Of a stretch of DNA of 60,505 nucleotides, positions 1,921-51,300 are shown one piece after another; within the stretch, counting starts at the first letter, position 1, and every line of letters starts with the position of its first letter. A program made the translations under genes and the position numbers. The notes under the pieces are model-generated. The model made no database searches, was not told where the DNA came from, and worked only from the letters and a program-made list of their open reading frames with translations. The DNA is from Patescibacteria group bacterium (GTDB lineage Bacteria > Patescibacteriota > Microgenomatia > Levybacterales > UBA12049): the NCBI GenBank assembly GCA_035457005.1, contig DATICB010000017.1:1-60505 (forward strand), read 5' to 3'.

Positions 1921-2145
1921 GCATGGCACGTAAAGATACATCAGGACCTCAATGTGTCAACGGAATGGGTGAATGTCCGAGGGAATGTGAATTACAGCAA
2001 CTCATTGACGATTTAGGTATTGCCTATCCAGATTATGACAAGGGAGCTTTCCAGAAAAAATTAGGAGAAGTATGTCTGAGAAGACGTCTTAATGGGAGGA
2101 CACGACAACCCCGCAGACATCCATAACGTCTGGTACAATAGCCAC

Positions 2146-3606
2146 ATGATCGATATCGTTGCTGATTTACATCTACACAGTAAATATTCACGTGCTGTCA
2201 GTCCGCAAATGACAACACCTCTTATGGCACACGTTGCAGCGCAAAAAGGAATAGAACTATTGGCAACAGGAGACTGGACGCATCCGGTGTGGTTTCGTGA
2301 GCTGCAAGCAAATGTAGAAGAAGCAGAAGAAGGACTTTTCAAGCTAAAATCCCAAACCCCAAGCTCCAAATCCCAAATCCAAAATCCCAAATCACAAAAC
2401 GGTACTGATGAAAATCGAAAAGAAGCCAGATTTCTTTTGTCCACAGAGGTTGCGACGATTTTTTCGCAAAATGGAAAAGGAAGACGGATCCACCAATTAA
2501 TTTTTGTTCCGTCATTTGCAACTGCTGAAAAAGTTAATAAAGAGCTAATAAAAAGAGGCTTTAATTTGTCTTCTGATGGCAGGCCAATTATTGGTTTGTC
2601 TAGTAAAAATCTGCTCTCACTTCTTTTAGAAATTGATGAAAGATCGCTTTTAATTCCAGCCCATGCATGGACGCCGTGGTTTGGTATTTATGGACAAATG
2701 TCGGGATTTAACAGTTTGTCAGAGGCATTTGAAAACCTAGCGCCACACGTGTATGGCATTGAGACAGGACTTTCTTCCGATCCGGAAATGAATTGGCAAG
2801 TGGATGAGTTGCGGACTCGTTCGATTCTTTCTTTTTCCGATGCACATTCGCTGTCAAAAATGGGAAGAGAGGCAACAATTTTTCGATTGGAAAATTTAAG
2901 TTATGAAAATATACGTGCTGCTATCATGCAGCCGTCTCTTGTCTCTAGTCATCAGTCATTGGCTAAAGACCAAAGACAAAGAGCAAAAGACCAAGTGCTC
3001 TACACTATCGAGTTTTATCCAGAAGAGGGAAAATATCACTATTCAGGACATAGAAATTGCAAAATTACCATGACACCAGAAGAGCAAGAGAAAGCAAATA
3101 ATATGTGTCCTGTCTGCAAGAGACGACTGACCGACGGTGTCATGCGACGCGTCACTGAATTATCCCAAGAAAAACCACGAGGACTTCATAAGGCAAACAG
3201 TAAAGGTCTGGTGTGGATTGCTGATCCAAAAAATATCCATCCACCATTTGTTAAAATAGTGCCACTGCAGGAAATTATTGCCGAGGCAATAAGCAGACCT
3301 GTCACGTCACCGAAAGTAAAAGTTATTTTTGATGTACTTTGTGAAAAAGGAATATCCGAATTTCATGTACTCCTGCATCTATCGTTGGATGAAATTAGCA
3401 AGATTGTTGCAACAATTTCTTCACCAGAGTATGCAGCAAGAATTCGAGACGGTATTCAAAAAGTTCGGGAAGAACATATTATTATTCAGCCTGGATTTGA
3501 TGGGGTTTTTGGGACAGTAAAAATTTGGCAAGAAGACAATGATGTTGCAAAAGATACCGATGAAAGTTTGAATAGTGCTAAAGAACAAATAGGACTGGGA
3601 TTTTAG
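2146..3606 (+). CDS. PHP-domain endonuclease Q (EndoQ)-like protein
   Basis: Motifs seen are ADLHLHSKYSRAVS, PAHAWTPW, SFSDAHS, GKYHYSGH, the zinc ribbon CPVCKRRLTDGVMRRV, and C-terminal IIIQPGFDGVFG. The ORF track starts at 2092, but the conserved N-terminus begins at the in-frame ATG 2146. Confidence 0.7.
   Translation: MIDIVADLHLHSKYSRAVSPQMTTPLMAHVAAQKGIELLATGDWTHPVWFRELQANVEEAEEGLFKLKSQTPSSKSQIQNPKSQNGTDENRKEARFLLSTEVATIFSQNGKGRRIHQLIFVPSFATAEKVNKELIKRGFNLSSDGRPIIGLSSKNLLSLLLEIDERSLLIPAHAWTPWFGIYGQMSGFNSLSEAFENLAPHVYGIETGLSSDPEMNWQVDELRTRSILSFSDAHSLSKMGREATIFRLENLSYENIRAAIMQPSLVSSHQSLAKDQRQRAKDQVLYTIEFYPEEGKYHYSGHRNCKITMTPEEQEKANNMCPVCKRRLTDGVMRRVTELSQEKPRGLHKANSKGLVWIADPKNIHPPFVKIVPLQEIIAEAISRPVTSPKVKVIFDVLCEKGISEFHVLLHLSLDEISKIVATISSPEYAARIRDGIQKVREEHIIIQPGFDGVFGTVKIWQEDNDVAKDTDESLNSAKEQIGLGF
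2347..2395 (+). repeat. 7-nt-periodic array of the AAATCCC family, in frame in the EndoQ-like gene
   Basis: The units are aaatccc aaacccc aagctcc aaatccc aaatcca aaatccc aaatcac. They encode KSQTPSSKSQIQNPKSQ. Confidence 0.9.
2963..2997 (+). repeat. 7-nt-periodic array of the CAAAGAG/CTAAAGA family, in frame in the EndoQ-like gene
   Basis: The units are ctaaaga ccaaaga caaagag caaaaga ccaagtg. They encode AKDQRQRAKDQ. The unit is related to the ligase AGCAAAG repeat. Confidence 0.8.
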
Positions 3607-11206: not shown

Positions 11207-12829
11207 ATGGAAGAAGCTGCAGTTGTTGTTGAGCAGACGCCAGAAAAAGAAGCAGAGCCAGTCATATTTTCTCCTGTTGCAGAGAGTCTGCTGTCTGTTT
11301 TTGCCCAAAAAGAATCTCCTAATCATGAGCCCAAAATTACCGTCAATCGATTTGTTTCGGAAGTTGCCAATTGGTATGAAAAGTTGCGAAATGCCATGGA
11401 TTATCGGGACGAGGAAGTAGTACTTCGTGCATCAATTGAAAGAATCTTAAAAAGACGACTCGGGATGAAGCGAAATAGTACACAAAAAGGCCTCTCTGTT
11501 GCCGAACCACTTCTAAAAGAATTGGTGTGGGCGCATTATTTTCCCAATGGCACACTGCCTGAAAGTTACACACAAAAAGTGGGGGATATTATTGATGTCT
11601 GGGTGAGGTGGAGAAAAGGAGTAAAGGCACGATATGTTATGCGCGATGGAGTTTTGAATTTGTGGTTTTACCAGCTCTTATCATCGCACATTGCGCGGTT
11701 TTTAAATCCGCAAGTGCACAGAAATACCATGAGTAATTTTATGTTTTTTGTCATGAAAGACGAAATACATATTTCCGATGATTCTGTCGAACAAAAAGAT
11801 GTTCAGGTCTATTTAGCTGTAAGACGTGCGTATGCAAAAGATGATATAGCATTTCTCCGTTTTGCACTTTTCGAACAAATTTTTGGTTCGCTATCTATTC
11901 ACACTGTTGAGTCGGCAATTCACGGATTTAAACATGGATATCAGGAAATAAAAAAACAATTATCGTACAAATTAAAAGAAAAAATTTATCAAAACATAAA
12001 AAAACAAACGCCTGTTTTTCTTATTTTAGAAGACGTGTTGGCAAGTAAAAAAGGGAAGATAGAAGAACTTTTTGGTAATGAAGAGGAGTTTCAAAAAGCA
12101 GTGTATGATGCATGTGACAAACGATATAAAAGCATAAGGCGAAAAGTGTCACTCGCAATTTTACGAAATGTTGTTTTTTTACTTGTTACCAAAGCAATTT
12201 TTGCTTTAGCAATTGAAGGAACATATGATAAGTATGTCTATGGCAATATTGGGTGGTTGTCAATTCTTCTGAACATTGGCATTCCGCCGATTCTTCTTAT
12301 CATTGTAAGTCTTCTTATTACACAGCCAAAAGAAGATAACTCAAAAAGAATTTTGGATAAAATAAAAATAGTCTTGACAGAGGAGTCGCCAAAAATTACT
12401 CCTGTTTTTGTTGTTGCGAAAAAACCTAAAAAAACAGCAATGCATTACGTCTTTGCCTGTTTGTGGTTTTTGGCATTTTTCTTAAGTTTTGGTACGATGC
12501 AAAGCATTCTTTCGTCCTTGCATTTTAATATTGTGAGCCAGGCTGTTTTTATTTTCTTTATCGCAATAGTCAGCTTCTTGGCATACGGTATTTCGTCAAC
12601 AGCGCATCAGTATATGGTTGATCCCAAGCCAGGACTTTTTACGCCTTTCATCGACTTTTTATTTATTCCGATTGTTCGGGTTGGCAGGTGGTTTACCGAT
12701 GGCATTTCTTCAATCAATGTTATTGTTTTTCTCTTTGATTACGTAATAGAAATTCCTTTTAAAGCAATTTTTGGATTTTTTGATCAGCTTTTCTGGTATT
12801 TACATACAAAAAGAGAAGAGCTGGAATAA
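11207..12829 (+). CDS. large membrane protein, function unknown
   Basis: 540-aa ORF with a soluble N-terminal half and 5-6 C-terminal TM helices. Confidence 0.7.
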   Translation: MEEAAVVVEQTPEKEAEPVIFSPVAESLLSVFAQKESPNHEPKITVNRFVSEVANWYEKLRNAMDYRDEEVVLRASIERILKRRLGMKRNSTQKGLSVAEPLLKELVWAHYFPNGTLPESYTQKVGDIIDVWVRWRKGVKARYVMRDGVLNLWFYQLLSSHIARFLNPQVHRNTMSNFMFFVMKDEIHISDDSVEQKDVQVYLAVRRAYAKDDIAFLRFALFEQIFGSLSIHTVESAIHGFKHGYQEIKKQLSYKLKEKIYQNIKKQTPVFLILEDVLASKKGKIEELFGNEEEFQKAVYDACDKRYKSIRRKVSLAILRNVVFLLVTKAIFALAIEGTYDKYVYGNIGWLSILLNIGIPPILLIIVSLLITQPKEDNSKRILDKIKIVLTEESPKITPVFVVAKKPKKTAMHYVFACLWFLAFFLSFGTMQSILSSLHFNIVSQAVFIFFIAIVSFLAYGISSTAHQYMVDPKPGLFTPFIDFLFIPIVRVGRWFTDGISSINVIVFLFDYVIEIPFKAIFGFFDQLFWYLHTKREELE

Positions 12830-15519: not shown

Positions 15520-15554
15520 GCAATAAGCCAAAAGCCATTTGCCATAAGCCACTA
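15520..15554 (+). repeat. 7-nt-periodic array (GCCAnnn)x5 just upstream of tRNA-Ala(UGC)
   Basis: The units are gcaataa gccaaaa gccattt gccataa gccacta. Confidence 0.8.
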
Positions 15555-16007: not shown

Positions 16008-19330
<3,323 letters not shown>

Positions 19331-21669: not shown

Positions 21670-21790
21670 AGGTAGCTATAATAACGCACTTGAAGCAGAA
21701 AATCAATATTATAAGATGTCTTTCTTTTTGCAATAGCTTGATGAGATTCTAGTGTTTCTGCGCAGGTCGTAGTATACTTGGGATAGTTTT

Positions 21791-23248
21791 ATGCCTAAAT
21801 CCGTTGTCTCTTTTGTCTGTCAGGAATGTGGATATGATTCTCCTGCGTATTTAGGAAAGTGTCCTGAATGTGGAAATTGGAACACCTTTAAAGAGTTTAG
21901 GCAATCCTCAAATCCTAAATCCCAAACAACAGCAAGTTATCATTCGACAGAAAATATAACAGCCCAGCCGCTGAGCGAGATTGTTTTATCGCCAAAAGAA
22001 AGGCTTTTTACAGGCTTTTCGGAAATGGATACAGTATTGGGTGGGGGAATTGTCAAAGGGTCCGCAACACTTTTAGCAGGAGATCCGGGAATTGGCAAAA
22101 GTACTGTTTTGTTGCAGCTGTGTTTAAACCTGGCAAAAGAAAAAGAAACAAAAGCTGTTTTGTATATTTCTGCAGAAGAATCAAAAGAGCAGGTGGCAAT
22201 GCGGGCGACTCGTCTTTTAGATGGCAATCCTCAAATCCCAAATTCCAAATCCCAAATAAGTTCAAAAAATCAAATAGCAAACACAAAGTTACCAGAAAAT
22301 CTTTTGCTTTTATCTATCACAAATGTTGATAAGATTGTTGAGATTATCGAGCAAACAAAACCTGATTTTGTCGTCGTGGATTCTGTCCAGACAGTAGAAA
22401 GTGAAGAGGCTGGGGGAATGAGTGGGTCTGTATCACAAATTCGCTACGCTACCTCTCGCTTTATTCGGTCTGCAAAGCAGACTGGTATTCCTGTTTTTTT
22501 GGTTGGTCACGTTACAAAAGAAGGCATGGTGGCAGGGCCAATGGTTTTATCGCATATGGTTGATACGGTGCTTTTCTTGGAAGGAGAAAAATATACCAAG
22601 ACAAGAATTTTACGCTCCTTTAAAAATAGATTTGGTCCAGTAGACGAGGTTGGTATTTTTCTCATGGATGAAAACGGCATGACTGAAGTAAAAAATCCTG
22701 AACAAATATTTCTATCGGATGGTCAGCAAAGCGCTCCAGGATCTGTTTTGACTGTTATTTTAGAGGGAAGTAGGCCATTTCTTATAGAAATTCAGGCACT
22801 TGTTGTCTATTCTAAATTTCCTATGCCCAGGAGAGTAAGTCTGGGATTGGACAATAAGCGAGTCGAGCTCTTGTTGGCTGTGCTGCAAAAACACGCAAAA
22901 TTGCCTTTAGAAAATTACGATGTTTTCGTCAACGTAGCAGGAGGAATAAAAGTAAGTGATCGAGCAGTGGATTTGGGTGTATGTTTGGCGATATATTCAT
23001 CGCTGAAAAATAAACCGCTTACCAAAACAGTTGGTATTGCAGAGGTTGGGCTTTTGGGGGAGTTACGCAAAGTACCTGATCTGACAAAAAGAGTGAAAGA
23101 GGCTCGGAAATTGGGGTTTACCAAAGTGATTAGCGCAGAAGGACAAGCAACACTTATGGATACACTGGAAAATTTTGGCTATACTCCAGGAAGTAAGCAA
23201 TGGAAACAGGCGGACGAGAGACATTTTACGATTCCAAATGAAGAGTAG
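21791..23248 (+). CDS. radA: DNA repair protein RadA/Sms
   Basis: N-terminal zinc finger CQECGYDSPAYLGKCPECGNW, Walker A GDPGIGKST, and a Lon-like C-terminal domain. Confidence 0.95.
   Translation: MPKSVVSFVCQECGYDSPAYLGKCPECGNWNTFKEFRQSSNPKSQTTASYHSTENITAQPLSEIVLSPKERLFTGFSEMDTVLGGGIVKGSATLLAGDPGIGKSTVLLQLCLNLAKEKETKAVLYISAEESKEQVAMRATRLLDGNPQIPNSKSQISSKNQIANTKLPENLLLLSITNVDKIVEIIEQTKPDFVVVDSVQTVESEEAGGMSGSVSQIRYATSRFIRSAKQTGIPVFLVGHVTKEGMVAGPMVLSHMVDTVLFLEGEKYTKTRILRSFKNRFGPVDEVGIFLMDENGMTEVKNPEQIFLSDGQQSAPGSVLTVILEGSRPFLIEIQALVVYSKFPMPRRVSLGLDNKRVELLLAVLQKHAKLPLENYDVFVNVAGGIKVSDRAVDLGVCLAIYSSLKNKPLTKTVGIAEVGLLGELRKVPDLTKRVKEARKLGFTKVISAEGQATLMDTLENFGYTPGSKQWKQADERHFTIPNEE
21903..21930 (+). 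repeat. AAATCCC-family heptamer array in radA (N-terminal linker)
   Basis: The sequence is aatcctc aaatcct aaatccc aaacaac, encoding SSNPKSQT. Confidence 0.75.
22233..22260 (+). repeat. AAATCCC-family heptamer array in radA (after the ATPase core)
   Basis: The units are aaatccc aaattcc aaatccc aaataag, encoding QIPNSKSQIS. Confidence 0.85.
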
Positions 23249-23291
23249 TAGTTTGGCAAATGATCAATAACTCACTGTTTAATTTACCTGT

Positions 23292-24074
23292 ATGGATACA
23301 AAAAAAATAACCAAACCAGAGATAGTTCAGACAGCTGCTGTTAAGCCGCCAGTTGTTTCTTCGCACTTTGTGGGTAATTTGGCAGATGAGATTGCCAAAA
23401 CATTGGCTGCAAAATTCCCACGAGGGTGGCAGAAAAGCACGGTAAAAAAGAAAAAACCAAAAAATAAAAAAGAAGCAGAAAAAGCTGTTTTTTTGGACAC
23501 ATCGGCAATTATTGATGGACGAATTTTTGATGTTATTGACACCGGCATCTTGAATGGGTTTGTGATTGTTCCAGAATTTATTCTTCTTGAGTTAAAGCAT
23601 ATTGCGGATTCGCAGGACATGGTAAAACGTGAAAGAGGACAACGAGGTTTGGAAAGACTAGAAAAAGTGAAAAGAAGTAGGTACATAAAACTTCTTATTT
23701 TGCCAGGAAACGAAAAAACAGACAAGCAAAAAGAGGTAGATGAAAAGCTTTTGACCATGACAAAAATGTACAAAGGCAGGCTCATTACGTGTGATTTTAA
23801 TTTAGAAAAGAAAGCGAGTGTTTCTGGGGTAACAGCAATTAATGTGCATCATTTGGCAAATAAATTAAAAGTGATTGCCGTGCCTGGCGAGAGCCTGCAT
23901 GTCAAGATTCAACACATTGGTAAAGATCCAACGCAAGGAGTAGGATATTTGGACGATGGAACGATGATTGTTGTGGAGCAGGGAAGTGGGTACTTGGACC
24001 ATTTTCTGAATGTTGTCGTAAGTCGTGTTATCCAAACCTCTTCTGGCCGCATGCTTTTTGCCAAAAAAATATAA
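23292..24074 (+). CDS. PIN + TRAM domain protein (YacL-like)
   Basis: PIN signature VFLDTSAIIDGRI, with a C-terminal TRAM-like beta domain (HVKIQHIGKDPTQGVGYLDDGTMIVV). It is adjacent to radA, as in many bacteria. Confidence 0.85.
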   Translation: MDTKKITKPEIVQTAAVKPPVVSSHFVGNLADEIAKTLAAKFPRGWQKSTVKKKKPKNKKEAEKAVFLDTSAIIDGRIFDVIDTGILNGFVIVPEFILLELKHIADSQDMVKRERGQRGLERLEKVKRSRYIKLLILPGNEKTDKQKEVDEKLLTMTKMYKGRLITCDFNLEKKASVSGVTAINVHHLANKLKVIAVPGESLHVKIQHIGKDPTQGVGYLDDGTMIVVEQGSGYLDHFLNVVVSRVIQTSSGRMLFAKKI

Positions 24075-32958: not shown

Positions 32959-32993
32959 ATACCAAATACAAAATACCATATACTACATACTAT
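32959..32993 (+). repeat. 7-nt-periodic array (ATACnnn)x5 just upstream of tRNA-Ala(CGC)
   Basis: The units are ataccaa atacaaa ataccat atactac atactat. Confidence 0.8.
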
Positions 32994-36336: not shown

Positions 36337-39300
36337 TTAGTTGACGATTAACCAATTAAATGTTGTGTTGGTTGTCTGCTGAAGAGGAATACCAACAGTA
36401 AAGGATGTTTTATCAACTTGGCGAATTAAGTATGGTGTTATTGTGCTTTGCCCAACAGGCGTGATGTAAATAAGTGATTTGCTCGTTACTAGTTTGTTGT
36501 CGATTGTTATTTCTGTTTGGTGTGCTTTCACATCTGCGGTGCCTGCCGATCCTGTTGCAACAAGTTCGGTATTGCTCACAGCCAGAGCTGGCTCTGCTAC
36601 TTGCAGATTCAATTTGCCAATCGTTGCCGCGCCAGACGCAATGACATTACCAAGCTGGTCAATCGTAAAGATGCCAGAGCCAGACGCATTTTGAACAGAA
36701 AGATTGGATGTTGCTAATGCTGCACCTGTTGCCGTTGGATTGTTGCCTAATTTTACCGTAAGGTTACGGTCATTGCTGATTGGCGAGATAATATTTGCAG
36801 CCAAGGTTTTACTAAAGACTGCATTGCCATTGACTGTGAGGTTGCCATCAGTGTCGATTGCCAAAAGCCCTCCTTCAAAATTCACGCCTCCTTGTCGAAG
36901 TGGCTGAATATCAAATGTTGCGCCCAAGACGTTGACTCCATTGTCGGCAAGAATTAACTGACTGCCAATTGCGAGCTGTCCAGTAATAGTAGTATCAGAA
37001 AGAGTGGTAGTACCAAGACTCATAAGACCTTGTTCAAACATACCAGTTGTTGCGTCTAAATTCGGGACATATGCCAAGAACCCAGAATATGAGGCTAAAT
37101 TAGTGTAGCCAAGGTATGGATTTAGCAGTCCAGAATTGGTACTGCTACTACCACCAAGTCCTGTAGCAATATTTTCACCAGTTGGTGCTCCACTTGGTGT
37201 AGCAAAGTATATATTGGTCACATTGGTAATATTTTGAGCAGAAAGTGTACTCACCACTGCTTGCAGTCCTGCAATGGTATTAGCCTCAATTCTGTTGGCG
37301 TGGAGGGTCCCGGATACGGTAGCATCGCCATTTACTGCGAGATTTTGCGAGGTAAGAGTGCCAGAAAATGTTGCATTACCAATATTGTCAATTGTAGCCA
37401 CGGCAGATCCACTTGCGCCATTTCTTACTTCTATCCTAGAGTTTCCTAGGCTCAAAGCAATGCTATTATCTTGCCCAAGAGGCGAGACAATGCCGGTGTG
37501 AAGCTGATCAATAGATGCAATAGGCGAGTTAACAGTTCCATTATTGAATTGGCTCAAGCTTCCATTGCTGATTGCTGTCTGGACAACGCCAATAATGTAA
37601 TCGGACAGACTTTGTCCAGCGATAGTGACATTGGCAGTGGCAATAGACAGGGAATTGGTGATAGTCTGTTGTGCTTGCAAGGATCCAACTCTCAAGTTTC
37701 CAATCACTGCTTCAGACAATGCGGCAATTTGATGAATTGGATTTCCGAATATGTCAGAAAGCATGTAATAGTGGGGAATAGTAAAGTCAGCGGAGACTGT
37801 TGCATTTTGATTCATGATAATATCTCCGGTACCGCTGAGGTCCAGATTAGTAAGTTTGCCAGAAAGCATTGCAAGCTGGCTATTTGCAGACGTTGTGGCA
37901 ACATCAACTTTGGTATTTAAATCCTGAACTGCCTTGACAATAAGTGGAGTAATTCTTCCATAATCAACACCCCATGGATCTTGTGGATTCACATCTCCAT
38001 ATCTGTCGTCTGGGTTTGTCGGCACGCTGACTGCGTTGGGAAAGACATTATACAGCCATTGAGCAATAAACCCCGTCTGCAGAGGGCCTGTTGGCTCAGT
38101 TTTGTAATGGAAGTTGACAACAGGAATCTGTAAGAGCTGATCTAGTCCCATATTGGTTGGAGCAATATCTGTCTTAAGACGGATATCAGAGGTATTGGTA
38201 TAGGTGACACCTCCACCGTTTCCCTGAACAGTACCCAAGGATGTGCCGTCTCCATCAAGGTATTGTAAAAAAAAGGCAGTATCACTGGTATTTGCTCCTG
38301 CTTGAATTCTAATCCCATCACCCGAATTAGAAACGGCATCATTATGGACAACAAGCGCAAAGTTACCGCCAGTGATACCACTGGTAACAGTCATCTGCCC
38401 GGTTGCTCCCCAAATAACGTCATAATTGCCATAGGTACGATCATACAAACCCAGTTGTCCAGACGTTCCAGCGGCGTCATTGTACCATTCATACTGATGT
38501 CCTCCCCCTGGAGTTCCATCCATAATAATTATGCCTCCTGCACTGCTATGTCCTACACGAATATTTCCTGAATTAACATCAAGGGTCGCGTTTGGGGTTG
38601 TTGTCCCAATGCCTACATTGCCACCACCTGGGTTAAGAGAAATGTTGCCAGTAGTACCTAATGTTGCATTAGGAAAGGCTTCTATAACTAGTGGACCATT
38701 ATTATTTGCAAATATAGCCCCAAGAGAGGTACCGGCCCTTTTCCATGTCGTTAGAAATACACCGTCATTTACCGTGTCTATATTTAGCGCACTTAGGGAG
38801 TTATTTGCTGCTTGGTTACTCACAATATCAAGTGTTGATGTTGGATTGGCTGTTCCGATTCCAACTCTCCCAAAGGTGTTATTCACATAGAGTGTTGGGT
38901 CTACCTGGGATGGGTCTTGCTCGGTATCAACAGACACCACTGGCTCTGGGTTGGTGAATGAGCGGACATATATGGTATTAGCAGAATTGGTGGTTGCATA
39001 GCCATTGTGGGGAGTACCAGTTGGGTTTGCCAAATCGGTTACTTCTGCTGCGCTGAGTGCTGCATCATAAAAGTGTACTTCATCAATATATCCTCTAAAA
39101 AAGTGGGCATTTGATCCTGCAGATTGTCCAATCTTAAGAGATTGGGAGGAAGAAGAACCTATTGTGGAAGAGCCTCCCGTACAGGTAGAGACTTGCACGC
39201 CGTTTACATAGGCGATTGCAGATGTTCCGGATTTAGTCACGGTGACATGCTGCCACACGTCGGGTGTAAGGATAATGCCCCCATTTGACCATTTATCTGT

Positions 39301-42300
39301 TCCTGCTCCGATTGTGTTACATCGATAGGAAGCTCCATCACTCCAGCCAAAGAAATAGGTATTACCTGTTCCAGTTGATTCTAGCATATACCCACCACTT
39401 GTATTGATATTATGTTTACTAAAAATATCTGCGCTGGTAGGCTGTACTGCTCCTGGCTTGACCCATAAATCAGCTGACATGGCATTACTAAAATTAATAC
39501 TGCTGCTATTGGCAATACTGATACTGTCCCCAACCCCATCAAAATAGACACCATTGTTAAACATGCCATTAGCAATAATTCCGTTGGAAAGTGTCCCTGT
39601 ATTGCCATTACCCGATGTATCACTTTCTGTTGTGCCGGAGGTAATATCCATGCTGTATGCCGCCTGAAGCCCACTAATGGAGCGAACAAATGTATTCGCG
39701 GCAGATGAAACACTGGTGGACAGAGACAAATTGCCATAGTAGATATAGATATTTTTCTTTTCTCCTGGTGGGAGCTGGGGGACTTTTACCCAGAAAATAG
39801 TTGATGACGTATTGCAGGTACCAGGCTCCATCCAGTAATTAAGATTGGTTGTACCATCAGAATCAGTAAAGCGCACGCCAGTACAATCATTTCTCATCTT
39901 GCCAACAGAGATAGGAGCCGTTGTATTGATTGATACTTTCACTTGGTAGTCTGCATTAGCAGAACTAGATGCTGACTGGGTATTATCTACGGTAATGCGA
40001 GCACGATATGATTCACCATAACTTGATGCTATCCAGGAAGTTGGATCATAGAGCCCTGACTTAATATCTCCAGCAACAGTGAGCAGGGCAGAAGTAGAGG
40101 CAACAGATGTTGTCCCAAGCGCTACATTGCCAGTTGTCTGTTGCACATAAAAGCTGGGGAGCATTTGGGTCACAGTATTTTGCTCTTGGCCTAATGATGC
40201 AATAGTTGGCTCTGTTGATACATATGCTCGTGCTTCTTCTGTATTGGCATTACTTGCAATAGTATAGCCATAATTTTGACCCCCATTGGAATACAAATCA
40301 GTAATCTGAGATGAAGATAAGGCGATATTATAGACACGGGGCTCATCTAGGGTGCCGGTAAAGAAACCTGCGCGTGCACCTGCGTTGTAGGGGGGTGCTG
40401 CGCCAATATCCAAGACGCCTGTTGGCGCACTGCCAACAGTGATCGTTGCCGGTGTACCTGTTGAGGCACCATCAACATAGAGCGTCATGGTTGTTCCGGA
40501 AATGGTCATGACAGCGTAGTGCCAATTACCATCAGCATAGGTTGTGGCAGTACTATCAACTATATAGTCTGTTGGGTTATTAAAGTACTCTGCTTCTACT
40601 TTTCCACTTGTTAGGAAGTTAAGACCAAAAAGGGTGCGAGTCCCAATTTGGGTATCTTTTCTAATAAGAGTTTCCTTAGAGCTTGGGTTAGATGATTTCT
40701 TAAACCAAATAGCAACTGATAATGGTTGGGTGATACGCAGGTTGCTACTGTCATTGATTTCTACATAGTCGCTATTGCCATCAAATGTTCGAGCATTACC
40801 AAAAATACCGGTTGCAACAGTTGTACCCGATTCAGAAGCGACGTTATTGCCATTCCCTGAGAAATCATTCATTGGCATGTAGGTTGGCTCATCAAATCTC
40901 CAGGCACCCTGTACTCCAGAAATTTCCCGGACAAACGTACTTGTGGAAGAGGATGCTGCACTTGCGCCCGCGTTGCCATAGTACATATACATCATTTTGT
41001 TGGGACCTGGAATAAGGGGTACCTTTACCCAGAACGTCGTTGCAGTGGTATTGCAGGAATTGGGCTCAATCCAGTAATTAAGGTTAGTCGACCCATCTGA
41101 GTCGGTAAATCGTACATCATTACAACTTGAAAGCACCTTTCCAGAAGAAACAAGACCTGTGGTATCCATAACAACTCGCACCTGGTAATTGATAAGCTGC
41201 TGCCCATAGGTATTGTTGATTGAAATTTGTCTTCTGTAGCTATAGCCATCCACACCCCAATTTGTGGCATCTTTGCCAACACGTAAATCTCCATAGACAT
41301 CAAGCTTGTATTGAGCAGAGGTGGTGCCGATACCAGCAGAGCCATTAATATCCATGGCCTGTCCGGATGCTGCAGGATCGATAAAGTAATTGGTGTTATC
41401 CAAATCCTGGAAAGACCTTGCACGCAAGATACCCGAGTTGGTGAGTTGAAGCTCAGTTGCTCCGGAGGCAGAAGCAGTGAGGATATCTGCTACATTGTTC
41501 TGTTGATTGACTATGAGTGCAGAATTCCCTAAGCCGTCTTTCTCAATATCCAAAGGCCCAAGGGGGGAAGTAGTGCCAATGCCAACATTGCCATTACTGA
41601 AGTAATGAGGGCCAGATCCTGTGACATGCAATCCGGTTGCGCTTATGGTAAATGCGGAAGCATCTCCTGTTGCGAAATAATTATTATTAATGCCAAATTT
41701 AATTTGTCCTCCCGATGGGGCGTTCAAAAAGGTATAGGTTCCGTCACCGAGTAAAGAGTAATTATTACACGTGAGATTATTTGTCCCAAAAGAGATACCA
41801 CTATATCCGCCCCCACAATTTGGAGATCCAATATAGGTATATGAGCTAGATTCTCCAAGGACTTGTAACTGTTCTTGAGGACTGTTTGTTCCAATGCCAA
41901 TATTCCCGGAACTTGCTATATATAGTGCAGGATTTCCTTCACCGCTATTGCCACCAACAGAATTATAAAACCCAAGGGTTGCATTGTTGAGTAAGTCAAC
42001 TTTTGTATTTGCCGCTGTGAAGGAAAGGTTGCCGGAAGTGGTTGCTGTCCCTGCATAGGTTCCAGAACCAAAAATCTGGAATTTTGCAGAGCTTGTGGCT
42101 AAACCGCCAACTGCCAAATCATTCGTAAGATTGGCAGGAGCTAAAACTCCAAGGCTGCTCAACTGCCAGAACCCCGCGATACCGCCACTGCTTGGAGTAA
42201 CAATTTGTCTCACATAGAGCGTATCCCATTCTTGTCCTCCTGCTGTCGGATCAGATCCCAAATTGTACGTATCGTTTGTTTTTGGAATAAGACTTGATGC

Positions 42301-45300
42301 AAAAAATCCAGTTGCGGTAATGTCATCGCTAGTTGCATCGCCAAGATTTACTTTTCCATTCAAAGTTGTTGTTCCTGTCACTGTCAGTGCATTATTCACT
42401 GTTGTCGTGCCGCTTGTTCCGCCTATGTTTACATTTGTTGTCAAGGCATTATTAGCGAGATTAAGTGTTGTTGCAGCAGACCCAAAGTTAATGGTTGTTG
42501 CTGTGGTATTGAGAAGATTGACACTTGTCTGATTGGTTGCAATGGTTGCTGCATTTAAATTGATAGTTGATCCTGTGCCACCGTTGAGCGCAGTAAGTGT
42601 AATATTTCCTGTTTGACTGTCACCGATGGTAAGCCCTTGATTATTTCGTGTTGCGATAACATTTGCCGTATCGCCGTTGAACGTCAGTGTTCCGGTTGTT
42701 GTCGCATTGCCAGTATTGGCAAACACCTGGAATTTAGCAGATGCTGTACCAGTGCCACCAATTGCCAAATCATTCCAGTTATTCGTTGGATACAAGACAT
42801 TACTTGCTAAGGTCCAGTAGCCACCAACACCGCCTGTTGCAGGAAGATAGACATTACTTGCTGTGACTGCGCCAGTCAGGTAAAGATTTTTCCAAGACAG
42901 CGCAACTGAGCCAAGGTCATCTGTATTGGTTATGCTTGGTATGATATCGGTGCTGACACGGCCAGTAAAACCAATCGTATTGCCTGTACCGCTTCCCAAG
43001 ACGACATTGCCCCTAATGGTATTTGTTCCTGCTGCATTACCAATACCAATGCCGCCTGTTGCACCAGATCCGATATTGATATTAGTTGCGTTAGAATCAA
43101 AAAGACTTGCTGTACCGGCAGTTGTTGTGATATTGCCACCATTCACAGCAACATTTCCTGAGGTAGTAAAATTGCCTGTTTGGGTTATGTCGCCGTTGTT
43201 AGCAATAGAGAGTACAGTTCCAAGACCAGAATCTCCTCCAACAGATGTTTTGACATTTAAGACGCTGCCGTTGAGTAATGCAACCTGCGTTGTGGTTCCT
43301 CTGAAAGAAAGTCCCGCAGAAGAGGTTGCCGTTCCTGCGGTGTTGACGCCAAGTGTTGTTGCAAATACTTGCCATGGTGTTGCAGACCCTGTTGCATTGC
43401 CACCAACTGCCAAATCATTCCATGCATTCACAGGAGACAATACATTGTTAGTCAGCTGCCAGAATCCTGAGACGCCTCCTGAAACAGGGGAGATGAAAGT
43501 GTTTGCATAGACTGTGCCATAGTAGTGAGTTGCAGAGCCAAGATTGATTGATCCATTGCCTGTTGGAACAAGATCGGTTGCCAAAGACCCAGTGGTTGTA
43601 ATCGTGTTGGTTGAGCTTGTTCCCAAAGTGACATCACCTTTCAAATTAATTGGTGTATTCGATGCGCCAATATTCAATGCTGTGGTTGCACCTGCGCCAA
43701 AGTTAATTGTTGTTGCTGTGCTGTTTAATAAATTAAAAGTGGTCTGATTGGTTGAGAATGTGCCGCCATTGTCTGCGATATTGCCTGTGGTAGTGAGTGC
43801 ATTGTTGACAGTTGTTGTTCCAGAGCTATTGCCAATATTTAAGCTCGTTGCTGTTGGGAAGGCAGTAAAGGATGTTCCACTGCTGTCGAGCGTTGTTCCA
43901 TTTATTGTGACTATGCCGTTGCCATTTTGTGGTTTTAAGGTAATATTGCCTGTTGTGTCGCCACCAATGGTAAGGCCTGCGTTTCGTGCTGTTTGGAGTG
44001 AGCCTGTGGCTGTTAGGTAGGTGGCATTGCCATTTAACCCGGAGCTTACCGATGCAACTGGTGTTCCGGATCCTGTCATATTGAGTACTGCAAATTTTGC
44101 AGAAGTAGTTGCCGAGCCACCAATGAAGAAATCAAACGTTTCATTGATTGGGTAGAGCGCGCCATTTGTCATAGTCCACCAATTACTTGCTGCAGAAGAG
44201 CAATCACTCCAGCTTGGTGCAGATGATGCATTAGAAATAAGACATTGGCCACCTGACCCAACAGATGTGAATGCGTATCGTGTTCCATTTGAGTAGGCGA
44301 CACTTCCCGCAGAGCCTAATGTTGTTGCATTGGTGCCGCCATTAGCAATTGGCAAGATAGAACTACCAACATCTGCTGTTAAATCAATTGCGTTAAATGT
44401 TGGTGCGCCTGCACCGTTGCCGCGAAGGAAAGTATGTGCTGCGCCTTGTGCTGTTTCGGCAACAGTGCCATTGGTATCAGATAAGTACAAAATACCATCT
44501 GCTGTGGTATATTTCTTAGCGATAAGTGTGCCATCATTTTGAATGGTAAATTTGGTGACACCTGACGCCGATGCAGTAAAGATGTCGCCGTTGGGTCCTT
44601 GCTTATTGACGACCAGTGCCGAATTTCCGCCTGCGTTTGGCTGCACAGTAATATTCCCTAAACCGCTATTTTGTCCAAGAATAATATTACCTGTTCCAGA
44701 AGACAAAAGCGTCAGGTCTGCATTGCTGGTAGTCTGAATTGTTGAGGAAGAACCGTTGCCAAGCGTTACGGTCGTGCCGTTCACTGTGAAATTTCCTCCG
44801 GTTGTTGTTAGTCCTGTTCCCGTTGTAAAGCTTGATGCACCGGCAAAGGTAACGCTGCTTCCTGAGATTCCATTCAGCGGACTCAGCGTTATATTTCCTG
44901 TGGTTGTTCCACCAATGGTTAATCCCTGGTTTCTTGTGGTCTGAATAAGACTGCCTGTACCATCAAACGTCAGTGTTCCTGCTGTTGTTGCATTGCCAGT
45001 ATTTCCAAACACCTGGAATTTAGCACTACTTGTTGCTGTCCCGCCAATTGCCAGATCATCAGCAATATTACTTGGAGAGATTATTCCTGAATTCCTCTGC
45101 CAGAAACCGTCATACTGTGCTGTTGCACTTAAAATAAGCCCATTTGCGTAGACATTTCTCCAGGCGAGCGCATTCGAACCAAGATCATATAGATTATTTG
45201 CATCAGGACCGACACTGCCTGCAAGTTGCAGTCTAAATGATCCTGGATTAGTTGTGCCAATGCCAACATTATTGCCGTTAAGAATAATGTTGCCGGTTTG

Positions 45301-48300
45301 ATTATCACCAAGAGTCAGCCCTTGATTATTCCTTGCAGCAATAAGGTTGGTTGCTGCAGTACCGCTGGTAAACGTCAGTGTTCCTGCTGTTGTTGCATTA
45401 CCAGAATTGGCGAAAATTTGAAATTTAGCGCTACCGGTTGCTGTGCCACCAATTGCGACATCGTCGGTTATATTGAGCGGTGCCAAAACACCTAAATTTC
45501 TCTGCCATGTTTGTGTAATTGGCTGTCCATTCTGGTAAATATTATTCGCATAAATATTATTCCACTGAAGAGCTGCCGAGCCTAAGTCATAGGTATTGGT
45601 TGTGTAGGGGAGAATATTGGACGAAACATTGCTGTTAAAACTAATATTGCCTGTAGTGTTGCCGCCCAATGTAAGCGTTTCATTTCTCACTGTCTGAATC
45701 GTTCCGTCTGCTGCAAAATACATGCCAGTGCCATTCAATCCTGATGATACCGATGCAGTTGGTGTGCCATTAGCGATATTGAGTACTGCAAATTTAGCAG
45801 ATGTTGTACTGGTTGCTCCTACTAATACATCGTTTGTTATATTTGTTGGAGATAATGCGCCATTGTTTAACTGCCAGAATCCAAGATACTGTGAAGAAGC
45901 CGAGCCAAAGAGATTGGTAATATAGGCACTACCATAGTAATTGGCTGGAGATCCTAAATTAATACTTGTTGATTGGGGAATAAGACTTCCTGAGAAAACG
46001 CCAACTGGGTTAATGGTATTGGCGCTCGTTGCTCCCAAAACTGCATTGTTGTTGGCAGTGAAAACACCTGTTGCTGTGAGTGCGTTATTCACTGTTGTCG
46101 TGCCGCTTGTTCCGCCTATGTTTACATTTGTTGTCAAGGCATTATTAGCGAGATTGAGTGTTGTTGCTGCACTGCCAAAGTTAATTGTTGTTGCTGTGGT
46201 ATTGAGTAAATTGACACTTGTCTGATTGGTTGCCAGTGTTGCTGCATTTAAATTGATAGTTGATCCTGTGCCACCGTTTAAGGGTTGGAGCGTTATATTT
46301 CCGGTCGTATTTCCACCAATGGTGAGTCCTTGATTTCTCACTGTCTGAATTGTTCCGTCTGCTGCAAAATACATGCCAGTTCCGCTTAATCCTGAAGAAA
46401 CAGATGCTGTTGGATTTCCAGAGCCAGTCATGTTGAGGACAGCAAATTTAGCAGTTGTTGTTGCGGTGCCGCCAGCTAAGATGTCGTCAGTAATATTAGC
46501 AGGGGAGAGTGTGCCAAGATTTCTTTGCCAGAATCCTGCAGTATTGCCGGATGTAATAATGTTTTTGACATACAAATTATTCCACTCCAAACTTGCAGAG
46601 CCTAAATTATAAGTGTCAGCATCTGCGGGAATAAGATCGGAGTTGATAAATCCACTGACCGTGAGCGATCCTGTCCCATTGTTTGGTTTTAAGATAATAC
46701 CACCTGTCGTGTCTCCACCAAGAGTAAGTGGTTGGTTGCTCGTTGTTTGGATTTGAGACCCTGTTCCGGTAAACGTCAGTGTTCCGGCAGTTGTTGCATT
46801 GCCAGTATTCCCAAAGACTTGGAATTTAGCACTATTGGTAGACGTTCCGCCAATTGCAAAATCATTTGTTATATTTGTTGGGCTTAAGACGCCGCTGTTT
46901 AATTGCCAGAATCCATCATACTGTGCATTCGGACCTAAAAGAAGACCATTTGCATAGATATTTCTCCAGCGAAGTGGTGTTGTTCCATCTCCCAAATCAA
47001 AAGTATTATCAGTTGTTGGGACAAGACTGCTACCAAATCTTCCTGTTGTGACAATAGTATCAGCCGTTGCATTACCCAAATTAACATCTCCATTAAGATT
47101 TGTTGTATTATTTGCTGTGAAAATACCTGTTGCTGTGAGTGCGCTATTCACTGTTGTTGTGCCACCAGTCACGCCAAATCCTAATGTTGTCGCATTGGCG
47201 GTAAATGCATTAAATGTTGATGCAGTTGTTTGAAGAGCAGAACCATTCACAGTAACTGTTCCATTACCACTGTTTGGACTTAAAGTAATACCACCTGTCG
47301 TGTCTCCACCAAGAGTAAGTGGTTGGTTACTCGTTGTTTGGATTTGAGACCCTGTTCCGGTAAAGGTTAAATTGCCAGCAGTTGTTGCGTTACCAGAATT
47401 GGCGAAGACCTGGAATTTCGCAGTTGCTGTTGCTGTCCCGCCAATTGCTAAATCGTCTGCAATATTCGCAGGGGAGACAACGCCGAGATTCCTCTGCCAG
47501 AATCCAACCGTGGTTCCTGTTGAGATAACATTTTTTACATAGATGTTGTTCCACTCCAAACTTGCAGAGCCAAGATCATACGTATCTGTTGTTCGTGGGC
47601 CAACATTGCCTGCCACTTCGAGAGCAAAATCGCTCGTTGTTGTTGTGCCAATGCCAACATTTCCTGTTGAATCAACATAGAGTCCTGTTGTTCCTTTCGG
47701 TGATAATTGAACTGATCCTGTTGTTGCAGAGCCTATGGTGAGCGGGCGATTGTTGGTGGTTGCAATGACGCCATTACTATTCAGTGTTATATTCCCAGAA
47801 ATGGATGCAGTTGGTGTGCCAGACCCTGGAGCATTATTTAAGAACGAAAAATTAGCAGAAGAACTACTCGTACCGCCAAACAAAACATCTAATGTTGTAT
47901 TAACAGGATAGAGAATTCCATTCCCACTATCCAATGTCCAATAATTTGTTGCACCGGCAGCGGTTGAACAACTTGTCCAGCTTGGCGCACCAGATCCTGC
48001 AGAGACAAGACATTGATTTGTCGAGCCTACCGCCGTGAATGCATAATTGGTGCCGTTGGAATAGGCAACACTTCCGGCTAACCCAATGGTGTTGGTGTTC
48101 GTACCGCCATTGGCAATTGGCAAGATGCCAGTAACTTCTGAAGCTAGGTTGACACTGCTTGATGATAAAACGCCTCCTGTTGCGTGGACAACGCCTGTCC
48201 CAAGGCCACCAATAGTGACTGTTCCTGCTCCATTGAGTGGGTTCAATGTGATGTTTCCTGTTGTAGTTCCGCCAATTGTCAGTCCTTGATTTTTCGTTGT

Positions 48301-51300
48301 CTGAATAAGACTGCCTGTACCATCAAACGTCAGTGTTCCTGCTGTTGTCGCATTCCCAGTATTTCCAAACACCTGGAATTTGGCAGTACTGGTAGACGTC
48401 CCGCCAATTGCTAAATCATCGGTAATATTACTTGGAGAAATGATTCCGGAATTTCTCTGCCAGAATCCTGAAATAGTACCTCCGGAAATAATGTTGTTAA
48501 CATATAAATTATTCCACTGCAAACTTGCAGAACCCAAATCATACGTATTGGTTACTTGGGGAATGAGGTTAGAGTTAATATGGCCATTAACAGTAATATA
48601 TCCGTTGCCATTAAGTGGACTCAAGGTAATGTTGCCAGTACTGCTGCCACCGATCGTGAGGCCTTGGTTATTGGTTGTTTGAATCTGACCGACACTATTC
48701 AGCGTTATATTTCCAGAAATGGATGCTGTTGGTGTCCCAGATCCTGGCGCATTGTTAAGAAACGAAAAATTAGCAGACGAGCTACTTGTACCGCCAAACA
48801 AAACATCCAATGTGGTATTCACGGGGTAGAGACTCCCGTTGGCAAGTGTCCAGTAATTAGTGACGCCTGCTGCTGTAGAACAACTACTCCATGTTGGTGA
48901 TCCTGCCGCGCCTGAAAGAAGACATTGTCCTGCTGTTCCTACCGCAGTGAATGCATAGTTGGTGCCGTTGGAATACGCAACACTTCCAGCAGAGCCGATG
49001 CTTCCAGTATTGGTTCCGCCATTAGCAATTGGTAAAATACCAGTGATCTCGCTGGTTAGGCTAACATTAGAGGAGGAAAGCAGACCTCCTGTTGAGTGAA
49101 CAACACCTGTACCAAGTCCAGCAATCGTGACAGTCCCTGTGCCGTTAAGTGGTTTTAAGACAATATTTCCAGTCGTGTCGCCACCAATAGTCAGACCCTG
49201 ATTGTTGGTTGTCTGAATAAGTCCTGCGCTGTTGAGTGTAATATTTCCGGAAATAGATGCAGTTGGTGTACCTGCCGCATTATTCAAGAAAGCAAATTTA
49301 GCAGATGAAGATGAGTCACCGCCAAATAAGACATCGAGTGTTGTATTGATTGGGTAGAGGGTGCCATTCGCAAGTGTCCAAAAATTAGTTCCCGAAGCGC
49401 CGCTGCCACAACTGCCCCAAGTAGGTGTTCCACCGCCTGCAGACGTAAGACACTGCCCGGCAGAGCCTGCTGCTGTTTGGAAGAAAAGTCCAGTCCCATC
49501 TGCATAGAAGATTCCGCCTGCGGTGTTGTAGTTGGATGCAGTAATTGTGCCAGTATTACCCAGCGTGAATTTGCTTACGCCGGCTGCAGATGCAGTGAAT
49601 AATGCTCCTGCGCCGTCTTGATTAATGGTGACTGCAGGAATACCAGAATTAGTAGCCAGGACAGCAAAGGTGTCATCAACCTCAACAGAGCCTGTCGCTG
49701 ATGAAATATTATTATTTTGTGTTGAATTGATGAGCGGCTTTTGCAAGTCAATAAATCCTTGGCCGTCGGGCGCGATTGTTATGTTGCCATTGGTCCCTGC
49801 GTTTGTATTTAAGACAAGCGTATCGCCGCTCAAGGTGAATGCACCACCAACTGTTTGGAATGTGCTCGCTGCGCCAATAGACAAATTGCCAGCGGAGTTA
49901 AGCGCCAAAACAACATTGCTTGTTCCTGCGCCGGATTGGGTAATCGGGGGCAAGCCTTGAAGCGTTTCCGCATTAGTCGCGTAGGCAACGGTTGCCAGCT
50001 GCTGTCTTGGTGTTAGCTCTGGAGTCTGAGCAACGGTAATGCCTAAGAAAAGATTGGCATTATTAGCAAAAAGAGACTGTTGAATTGCACTTCCTTGTCC
50101 CAATAACACTGAAAAAACACCATTGGCATCAGGAGTAACATTATCGACCTCTTGCCACAAAAGAGCTGAACCGGTTGCTGTAGCGTTGGTGTAAATACCA
50201 AAACGTAAATTGGTCGAGGTTGTTATTGGATTGCTGCTACTATCTGTCAGCCTGCCTTGGAAGGAAAGAATCCTGTTTGGTTGTGCTGCTGCTAGAATAT
50301 GCTGACCATTTTGTGGGCGTGATGCAAAATTGTTGTAAAACCCAAATCCAATGACTGTCATGACAATCATGAGGATTGCCCAGTTAAAATAATGCGCAAT
50401 TGCATAACTATGATATCTTTTGTACCAGTTGGGTCGTGTATATCGTGCATGATGAATAAGTGTTTCAAGCCATGGCAACTGATTCAGTATTCTTTGTGCT
50501 GGAGCGAAAACTGACTTTGAAATATTTTTCACAGGCATAAATTGCGCAAGCCTCTTCTGCTCGTCTGTCAGCTTGTTGGTGAAAAGAGGCTTACCCCTGA
50601 GTGTCCAGATTGCTTTATGACCATGAACAACTAAGTGGGTGAGTGGAGTTATGAAAACACTGTCAAATACAAAATTGATTCCTTTTGATATCTTTTGAGC
50701 AAGTCTAAAAGGAGGAAAAGGAGAATAAGTGTGAGATTTTGTGGGTAGCGCAGTGGGTTTTGCTACACCTTCTCCATCGTCGGTAGTTAGGACATGGTCT
50801 TTTTGTTGTCTCTCTGGCGATTCAAAAGTGTTAGTGCTAGGAATATTTGTAACATCAATTGGATTGACGGGAAGACCTTTTTGATTTTGCAAAAGATTTT
50901 GACTATTTGCCCAGGCAACGTACTTACGGAGTGAGGAGAGCTTGCGGTTAATTGATGAGTTGGAAAAAGCATGTTCAGCCACAAGTGCATCTCTGTAACT
51001 TGCAAGCAGGGCATTGTCCAAGCTCTCTAAAACAGTTGCTTCTGGATTCTGTTGTTGCACCGAAGACTGTGCCCATTTAAAAAATTGTTTCAAGTCAATG
51101 ATATAGTTTTTGATAGTTAGATTGCTTGCGTTATAGACATAAAGAAAATCTTTGAATTGTTTGAGCTGGTATGGATCTTCTATATGCTGGCTAGATGTCA
51201 CCTGATCAAGTGGACTCGCGCTTACGTAGCCTTGTAATTTAAGGAAATGAAAGAATTTTCTCAAGGAAGAGACATGCCTATCAAGCGATCTTTCTGAGAG

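Follow-up and report, generated by a model that had tools for sequence, protein, structure and literature searches.

The subject of this report is a heptanucleotide repeat of the AAATCCC type, found as four short arrays within three genes of a Patescibacteria group bacterium (Microgenomatia; Levybacterales). The DNA analysed, referred to throughout as the window, comprises positions 1–60,505 of contig DATICB010000017.1 (assembly GCA_035457005.1) and has a GC content of 41.6%. All three host genes lie on the + strand. The first encodes an endonuclease Q (EndoQ) family protein of the PHP type (2092–3606, likely start at 2146), the second is radA/sms (21791–23248) and the third is leuS (57434–59926), encoding leucyl-tRNA synthetase (LeuRS). 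The best named relatives of LeuRS, RadA and the PHP/Zn-ribbon protein come from Candidatus Levybacteria/Levyibacteriota and other Patescibacteria (the candidate phyla radiation, CPR) in soil and groundwater metagenomes. An earlier note on this DNA had called the first protein EndoQ-like, and the label is right: its relatives are named ‘endonuclease Q family protein’ by NCBI and it matches the PfuEndoQ (Pyrococcus EndoQ) structures in the PDB with E = 2e-39.

Four arrays in three genes

The EndoQ array spans positions 2347–2398 and, like the other three, is read on the + strand. Tandem Repeats Finder (TRF) resolves it as 7.4 copies with a period of 7 and 80% matches, although a period of 21 is also possible; its units are AAATCCC, AAACCCC, AAGCTCC, AAATCCC, AAATCCA, AAATCCC and AAATCAC, and the encoded peptide is KSQTPSSKSQIQNPKSQ. 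There are two arrays in radA. Site 1 (21902–21931; TRF period 7 at 21903–21926) is made up of CAATCCT, CAAATCCT, AAATCCC and AAACAAC and encodes QSSNPKSQTT. Site 2 (22226–22294; TRF 22226–22257) consists of an array proper at 22226–22262, comprising GGCAATCCT, CAAATCC, CAAATTC, CAAATCC and CAAATAAG, followed by an A-rich tail; the site encodes DGNPQIPNSKSQISSKNQIANTK. The LeuRS array (57553–57584; TRF period 7) reads AAATCCC, AAATCCC, AAGCTCC, AAATTCC and AAAA, giving the peptide KSQIPSSKFQ. The units are arranged head to tail at all four sites, with copy numbers of 3.2–7.4 (TRF, period 7) and array lengths of 28–52 nt.

The presence of these four arrays, in frame in EndoQ, radA (twice) and leuS, is confirmed, and they are not the product of base composition. 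A search of the window for (AAATCCC)3 with up to three mismatches gives matches at 2368, 2375, 22233 and 57554, whereas 100 shuffles that preserved dinucleotides gave 0.00. In a phase-free scan there are exactly four clusters in the window, every one of them on the + strand, where Markov models of order 1–5 predict 0.02–0.35, and the degenerate pattern (AARYYCC)3 yields ten overlapping matches where 0.03 are expected. Sequence, TRF and phase-free scan thus agree on the positions reported in the earlier note, and the excess over composition that it had anticipated is borne out for the window. The RadA arrays are unchanged in contigs from three independent public soil and groundwater runs, indicating that they are real DNA and not an assembly artefact. 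The only G-rich-sense match of the AARYYCC type in the window (11648–11668, − strand pattern) is weak, with two mismatches; it lies within an open reading frame (ORF) at 11207–12829, where it is read as GVLNLWF, and is probably due to chance.

Loop sites and turnover between orthologues

The earlier note placed the arrays in variable linkers, and alignment with structures in the PDB, together with AlphaFold confidence values, points to the same conclusion. The LeuRS array aligns with residues ~25–37 of Thermus thermophilus LeuRS (1H3N), a loop between the N-terminal helix and the strand preceding the HIGH motif. In RadA, site 1 occupies the linker that joins the Zn ribbon to the ATPase domain, and site 2 is an insertion of 19–22 residues between a helix and the next strand, corresponding to a 22-residue gap in the alignment with Streptococcus pneumoniae RadA (5LKM). 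In EndoQ, both the array at 2347 and a second heptamer array at 2965 (described below) lie in segments that PfuEndoQ lacks or that do not align with it. The AlphaFold model of RadA was of moderate quality, with a mean predicted local distance difference test (pLDDT) score of 65, and was therefore used for local disorder only: residues 39–68 and 146–164, which correspond to the two arrays, have pLDDT values below 50, and the N-terminal half of the model has no other long internal segment of low confidence. By these alignments and this model, every array site lies in a variable or disordered loop or linker. The description of the arrays as inserts holds for RadA site 2 and the EndoQ array, which are the only clear net insertions, but not for LeuRS and RadA site 1, where the arrays fill pre-existing linkers with a net gain of around two residues (two in the case of LeuRS when aligned with the T. 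thermophilus protein).

Alignment of orthologues, which the earlier note had proposed as a means of finding lineage-specific segments, shows that the arrays are lineage-specific, the closest orthologues having either no such segment or another version of it. LeuRS relatives at 71–75% identity carry unrelated linkers at the array position. RadA site 2 is missing in relatives at 81–83% identity, takes a shorter and different form in a 94%-identical gene (contig L123) and is represented by an AAATCCG array in a 76%-identical gene. Both the sequence and the length of the array thus differ between the window and L123 genes, suggesting that turnover at site 2 is rapid. The EndoQ array is missing in the closest orthologues (70–72% identity), in which the baseline sequence is KIKNPTPQNEKTRF, but its position is occupied by arrays in five more distant orthologues, among which L127 shows clear homology in its DNA sequence. 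The window array equals the L127 array plus approximately three extra units, a difference consistent with frame-preserving growth by 21 nt. None of the distant orthologues compared carries the same peptide encoded by unrelated nucleotides. The array-bearing EndoQ orthologues are scattered on a neighbour-joining tree that is poorly resolved and star-like, a single ancestral insertion in EndoQ, which was also considered, being one possible history among several.

Two further observations concern these loops. Across window positions 21700–23300, nucleotide identity to the L123 contig (run X2) is ~98% upstream of RadA site 2 and ~96% downstream, and the array may coincide with a recombination boundary. 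In other CPR genomes, the same loops of LeuRS, RadA and EndoQ contain recurrent low-complexity inserts of other kinds (SGQARMT, SAKATEGQ, IPAKAGIQ, SRIKSGMT, (A)PRNDK, HPNPLPKGEG, LRSDDLK). These resemble translations of other dispersed DNA repeats, and invasion of loops seems to be general in CPR housekeeping proteins.

Codon choice within the arrays bears on whether they originated at the level of the DNA or of the peptide. TCC accounts for nine of 14 serine codons, compared with 11% of serine codons in the genes of the window (binomial p ~3e-6 by our own calculation), ATC for three of four isoleucine codons (17% background) and TTC for both phenylalanine codons (26% background), whereas glutamine is CAA in ten of ten cases and lysine AAA in seven of seven. 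An overall codon-likelihood test of the arrays is marginal (p = 0.08) because the lysine, glutamine and asparagine codons coincide with the preference of the genome, leaving the signal in serine, isoleucine and phenylalanine. The same nucleotides are also read in different frames: the 16-nt sequence GGCAATCCTCAAATCC that starts both RadA arrays is read Q-S-S-N-P at site 1 and G-N-P-Q-I at site 2, and AAGCTCC gives P-S-S in both EndoQ and LeuRS, as opposed to Q-A-P in RadA from a relative (L124).

Had selection favoured KSQIPNP-type peptides for their use as flexible, hydrophilic linkers or as motifs for binding or modification, the likeness at the nucleotide level would be a by-product of codon usage. 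The arrays do all lie in loops, their peptides are polar and proline-rich, as befits good linkers, and their lysine, glutamine and asparagine codons are those that the genome prefers. Given, however, the departure of the serine, isoleucine and phenylalanine codons from genome usage, the different frames in which the same nucleotides are read and the quite different low-complexity inserts (or none) in orthologous loops elsewhere, we consider selection of this kind very unlikely. Codon choice, reading frames, orthologues and loop sites instead support the earlier note in its proposal of a DNA-level repeat spread into coding regions, with the arrays best read as heptanucleotide microsatellites and not as convergent peptides.

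Proposed slippage and copying, and alternative origins

Arrays with a period of 7 are not confined to the AAATCCC type. TRF analysis of a 158 kb sample of the lineage (the window and nine related loci) identified 33 period-7 arrays, compared with 4.0 expected from order-3 Markov sequence. Counting only those with at least three copies, there are 27 of period 7 and six or fewer of every other period. The units are diverse (AGCAAAG, AAAGACC, TAAATAC, ATTGGAA, GAAGTAA and others) and nearly all are found in long ORFs, as are, without exception, the four window arrays and the related arrays in relatives. Period 7 is thus the dominant short tandem repeat of the lineage and is mostly found in genes.

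Three further examples are found in the window. The ATP-dependent DNA ligase gene contains a perfect AGCAAAG array of 4.1 copies (451–479, + strand; peptide SKEQRAKSK) that causes no net insertion; the corresponding loop in a relative (L128) has a degenerate (CAAGANN)5 where the window has (AGCAAAG)4, and the ligase array looks like the outcome of slippage in situ and re-homogenisation. A second variable loop of the EndoQ gene carries an AAAGACC-type array (2965–2994, + strand; peptide KDQRQRAKDQ), a 16-residue insertion relative to PfuEndoQ. The peptide motif of this family (KDQRPKT-like) recurs in an Mfd ORF of L054, a genome contig with a GC content of 0.43. Finally, a TAAATAC-type array of 4.9 copies (54680–54713, − strand; peptide QIQNTKYKTLN) lies near the N-terminus of the ORF at 53716–54732, a hypothetical gene; the same heptamer (TAAATAC/AATACTA) is found in frame in the arginyl-tRNA synthetase of a relative (L002, 20742–20775), that is, one unit in different genes of different genomes.

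A number of other features of the window can be noted here. The ORF just mentioned and its adjoining paralogue (54756–55526), both on the − strand, carry near their N-termini arrays of an 8-nt unit, AATAAACC, in 4.4 copies (54620–54654 and 55447–55481); these encode the hydrophobic segments LLIGLLGYLCIGLF and ILIGLLVYLSIGLF, and a similar array is present in the syntenic gene of L002 (8955–8989). Weak heptamer-like arrays of ATAAGCC and ATACCAA (15523–15551 and 32959–32983) lie 13–15 nt upstream of tRNA-Ala genes and may be promoter or leader regions. Rfam gave no match over the AAATCCC-type arrays, a gathering-threshold scan of the window returning 23S, 5S and three tRNAs only. The 23S rRNA match (16015–19322) is 3308 nt long compared with a 2925-nt model, implying ~380 nt of extra sequence, and has tRNA-Ala just upstream and 5S downstream, with no 16S gene adjoining. 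A giant ORF of 5052 amino acids occupies 36337–51495 on the − strand; syntenic giant genes lie upstream of leuS in two relatives (L001 and L002).

As regards the AAATCCC-type arrays, the distribution of one variant unit is informative. AAGCTCC differs from AAATCCC at three positions and is found within three in-phase units of only two of 135 (AAATYCC)3 arrays drawn from GTDB genomes, yet it is present in the EndoQ and LeuRS arrays of the window, in the L127 EndoQ array and in the L124 RadA site 1 array. Its rarity beside such arrays elsewhere and its recurrence here argue for copying between loci. The EndoQ and LeuRS copies are identical at 29 of 32 nt, just as the earlier note had estimated, with AAGCTCC at the same position in both, and have in common the five-unit architecture AAATCCC-AAAyCCC-AAGCTCC-AAATyCC-AAA. 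In addition, the site 2 array of the L123 RadA gene aligns better with the site 1 array of the window than with its site 2 array. From these likenesses we infer that ectopic gene conversion or template switching may have carried array sequence from one locus to another.

The shared five-unit architecture could also be the mark of a dedicated mobile micro-element, with discrete copies of ~32–35 nt, possibly one arm of a longer hairpin, being inserted into genes by an enzyme (a transposase or a RAYT-like or reverse-transcriptase-like protein), as has been proposed for the palindromic elements of Rickettsia. The 18-nt composite CAAGCTCCAAATYCCAAA is present at 120 or more metagenome loci. GC-rich contigs from soil carry it as the arms of a long, conserved inverted repeat that follows directly on stop codons, often in several copies on one contig. 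By our own estimate, however, the composite is expected ~35 times by chance in the metagenome collection. The window contains no inverted arm, neither a transposase nor a reverse transcriptase was seen beside any array, and the arrays have no defined termini or target duplications, their lengths and flanks being variable. Other heptamer units behave alike in this lineage, which an enzyme specific for one motif would not explain. We therefore regard a dedicated element as unlikely. The inverted repeat itself (TCAAATCCCAAGCTCCAAATCCCAAATCCCAACGCACTCCCAA, a loop and TTGGGAGTGCGTTGGGATTTGGAGCTTGGAGCTTGGGATTTGA) begins a few bases past stop codons in metagenome contigs with a GC content of 0.6–0.68 (L141, L183, L187, L210, L215, L217, L226, L232, L245 and others), has up to three copies per contig and looks like a 3′ element akin to a repetitive extragenic palindrome (REP) or a terminator.

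A broader proposal is that CCAA-periodic heptamers (AAATCCC, AAGCTCC, AAATTCC and the like) make up a DNA element that is conserved in sequence and spreads horizontally, present as post-stop hairpins in GC-rich soil bacteria and as single in-frame arms in essential genes (LeuRS, RadA, EndoQ, TrmD, SecA, MetH, Mfd) of CPR and other bacteria, and moved by a dedicated mechanism of templated insertion or transposition. Such an element would be a new class of protein-invading micro-element, but we consider its existence quite unlikely. Perfect (AAATYCC)3 triplets are found at 120 or more GTDB loci in many phyla, including Flavobacterium and Dolichospermum isolates. In viral contigs, used as a control, the true unit is present at 21 loci, compared with 44, 18 and 25 for composition-matched heptamers, at least 120 and 55 for hexamers and 15 and one for octamers. 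Presence across phyla is accordingly no evidence of a special element, and the wide distribution is mostly a matter of how abundant short tandem repeats are in general. The notion of a special pan-bacterial motif was rejected, the true unit being no commoner in viral contigs than its composition-matched counterparts.

Because 7 leaves a remainder of 1 on division by 3, an in-frame array runs through all three reading frames every 21 nt. On the C-rich strand this gives the stop-free, hydrophilic reading K-S-Q-I-P-N-P and on the G-rich strand the hydrophobic G-I-W-D-L-G-F. The coding strand is C-rich at all array sites of this lineage. Pfam-checked matches in GTDB genomes that are in frame in the C-rich sense include two in TrmD, two in MetH and one each in SecA, a P-type ATPase, a tyrosine recombinase, an IleRS-like protein and Mfd. 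With lineage and GTDB sites combined, the coding strand is C-rich at 13 or more independent in-gene sites and G-rich in one verified case, a U32 peptidase, nearly all other G-rich ‘in-ORF’ cases being upstream of the real start codon. The two TrmD arrays, of KFQIPNSK type, are in the same loop in members of two CPR phyla (L032, Saccharibacteria; L053, Parcubacteria), a case of recurrent occupancy of the same site, as at EndoQ site A. The orientation bias fits the action of two filters, namely that hydrophobic peptides are not tolerated in loops and that G-tracts are avoided in mRNA. Heptamer simple sequence repeats (SSRs) are over-represented in prokaryotes, with G-rich heptamers depleted on the coding strand of ORFs (PMC4692102).

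This bias is also what might lead one to suspect a functional nucleic acid element: a (GGGATTT)n G-quadruplex, or a C-rich i-motif, Rho-loading or pausing signal, through which transcription, replication or translation of the host genes would be tuned. The related heptamers GGGAATC and GGGGA(C/T)T form G-quadruplexes in vitro and are strand-biased relative to genes (PMC4692102), C-rich coding strands fit avoidance of quadruplexes in RNA and, in our reading, C-rich, G-free RNA resembles a rut-like sequence. Quadruplexes of the GGGNATC type, however, are defined by at least four consecutive G3 tracts (Rehm et al. 2015). Only the EndoQ array has four tracts of three or more Cs, separated by 11-nt loops, with one such tract at RadA site 1 and two each at RadA site 2 and in LeuRS, too few for quadruplex potential to have been maintained. 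Furthermore, the nearest orthologues of these essential genes lack the arrays, and many unrelated heptamer units without G-tracts are found in equivalent loops. A functional element of this sort is therefore rather improbable.

We put at roughly two in three the probability that the arrays are short, partly decayed CCCAAAT heptanucleotide microsatellites, akin to the short tandemly repeated repetitive (STRR) sequences discussed below, that turn over at the DNA level and are carried as tolerated passengers in essential genes. Slipped-strand mispairing would lengthen and shorten such arrays, with 7-nt steps favoured by the polymerase, and the only visible changes would be those that preserve the frame, namely 21-nt steps or compensated indels. 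Copying from one locus to another, by ectopic gene conversion or template switching, would also take place and would explain both the five-unit architecture common to EndoQ and LeuRS and the site-1-like array at site 2 of the L123 RadA gene. Selection would act as a filter only: in whichever phase an array is inserted, its peptide is a permutation of K-S-Q-I-P-N-P, which is polar, contains proline and has no stops. The hydrophobic reading of the opposite strand and the G-tracts it would bring to mRNA would account for the near-exclusive C-rich sense and the restriction to surface loops. A benefit to the host proteins would not need to be assumed.

Several points weigh against this interpretation. 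No unit-number polymorphism is seen in the RadA arrays in contigs from three independent populations, in which rare variants would be hidden, so that ongoing slippage is deduced from comparison between genomes only. Single-unit slippage would frameshift essential genes, and a pure stepwise model therefore needs either strong purifying selection or multi-unit events. Slippage alone does not explain the recurrence of the AAATCCC unit at four sites in 60 kb, the scatter of the EndoQ arrays could be due to repeated gain, to many losses or to lateral exchange, and the statistics on orientation and on coding versus non-coding location are based on few independent sites.

The frame effect itself brings to mind contingency (phase-variation) loci, in which changes in unit number switch genes on and off: the 7-nt unit is not a multiple of three and slippage by a single unit would move the gene in or out of frame, as happens at heptanucleotide contingency loci already known. 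The hosts here are single-copy essential or repair genes, however, the arrays are short and imperfect, and the contigs from the three populations contain no RadA length variants of the kind expected, rare ones possibly escaping assembly into contigs. We regard this explanation as extremely unlikely. By sequence alone, CCCAAAT also fits the X_XXY_YYZ pattern of slippery sites for −1 frameshifting; frameshifting would be harmful in these essential genes.

Heptamer repeats in other bacteria

Heptanucleotide repeats have been known in bacteria since 1990, are over-represented in many genomes and have been treated as intergenic features. In the present lineage they are found mainly inside conserved genes, creating what amounts to a natural experiment: the frame constraint reports on which length changes survive, orthologues allow gains and losses to be dated and shared variant units reveal copying between loci. 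The case is informative on how microsatellites colonise essential genes and on the long-open question of heptamers. It has a practical side too, as arrays in marker genes (aminoacyl-tRNA synthetases, RadA, SecA, TrmD) can interfere with sequence alignment, phylogeny and homology searching in CPR and other uncultured bacteria. In the open-access papers searched, we found no description of the AAATCCC repeat, of its peptides or of heptamer SSRs in CPR genes.

Two analogues were offered in the earlier note, the in-frame palindromic elements of Rickettsia and the STRR repeats of heterocystous cyanobacteria, and they fare differently. The Rickettsia palindromic elements (RPEs), reportedly described by Ogata and colleagues in 2000, are said to be palindromes of ~100–150 bp with a defined consensus. 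They resemble the present arrays in being DNA-level repeats that reside in frame in unrelated conserved genes, at surface-exposed, tolerated positions. The likeness ends with this in-frame residence, as the present arrays are tandem heptamers of 28–52 nt, variable in length, non-palindromic and without an inverted arm. A palindrome of the RPE or REP type was itself considered for the window and rejected, there being no reverse-complement array anywhere in it. Slippage-derived low-complexity inserts are familiar in tolerant regions of proteins but usually consist of codon (3n) repeats; here the unit is 7 nt and the heptapeptide is drawn from all three frames.

The TAACTGA direct repeats of Beggiatoaceae, Cyanobacteria and Bacteroidetes constitute a heptamer family with a patchy cross-phylum distribution, occasionally translated as LSVISYQ in ORFs (MacGregor 2015; PMC4679880). 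Like the AAATCCC repeats they are dispersed and can appear as a heptapeptide repeat. They differ in lying mostly just upstream of start codons, in having one orientation with stops in all frames and in that the in-ORF cases are peripheral or lie in hypothetical proteins rather than in loops of essential enzymes (PMC4679880). The GGGAATC repeats of Xanthomonas (PMC4692102) share with the present arrays a strong over-representation of period-7 SSRs relative to other long periods and a variation in length and sequence between close relatives, and polymerase slippage tuned to 7 nt has been proposed for them. In the present lineage, by contrast, the heptamers sit in coding regions.

The analogue from cyanobacteria has proved the apter of the two. 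The STRR1 heptanucleotide repeats of heterocystous cyanobacteria, reportedly described by Mazel and colleagues in 1990, are said to have the consensus CCCCA(A/G)T. In common with the present arrays they have 7-nt units arranged head to tail, many dispersed copies, a C-rich and a G-rich strand and a strand bias relative to genes; CCCAAAT is one base away from CCCCAAT (six of seven positions identical) and to that extent falls outside the consensus. STRR1 equals the quadruplex-forming GGGGA(C/T)T repeats of Nostoc (Rehm et al. 2015; PMC4692102). The STRR1/Nostoc repeats are cyanobacterial and overwhelmingly intergenic, with a preference for four units and intact G-tracts, whereas those described here are degenerate, belong to a CPR bacterium, sit in frame in its conserved housekeeping genes and in most cases no longer have the potential to form quadruplexes. 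The signs of copying between loci are a further difference from known heptamer repeats. On present evidence, then, the arrays are the coding-region form of the known STRR-like heptamer repeats rather than a new kind of system.

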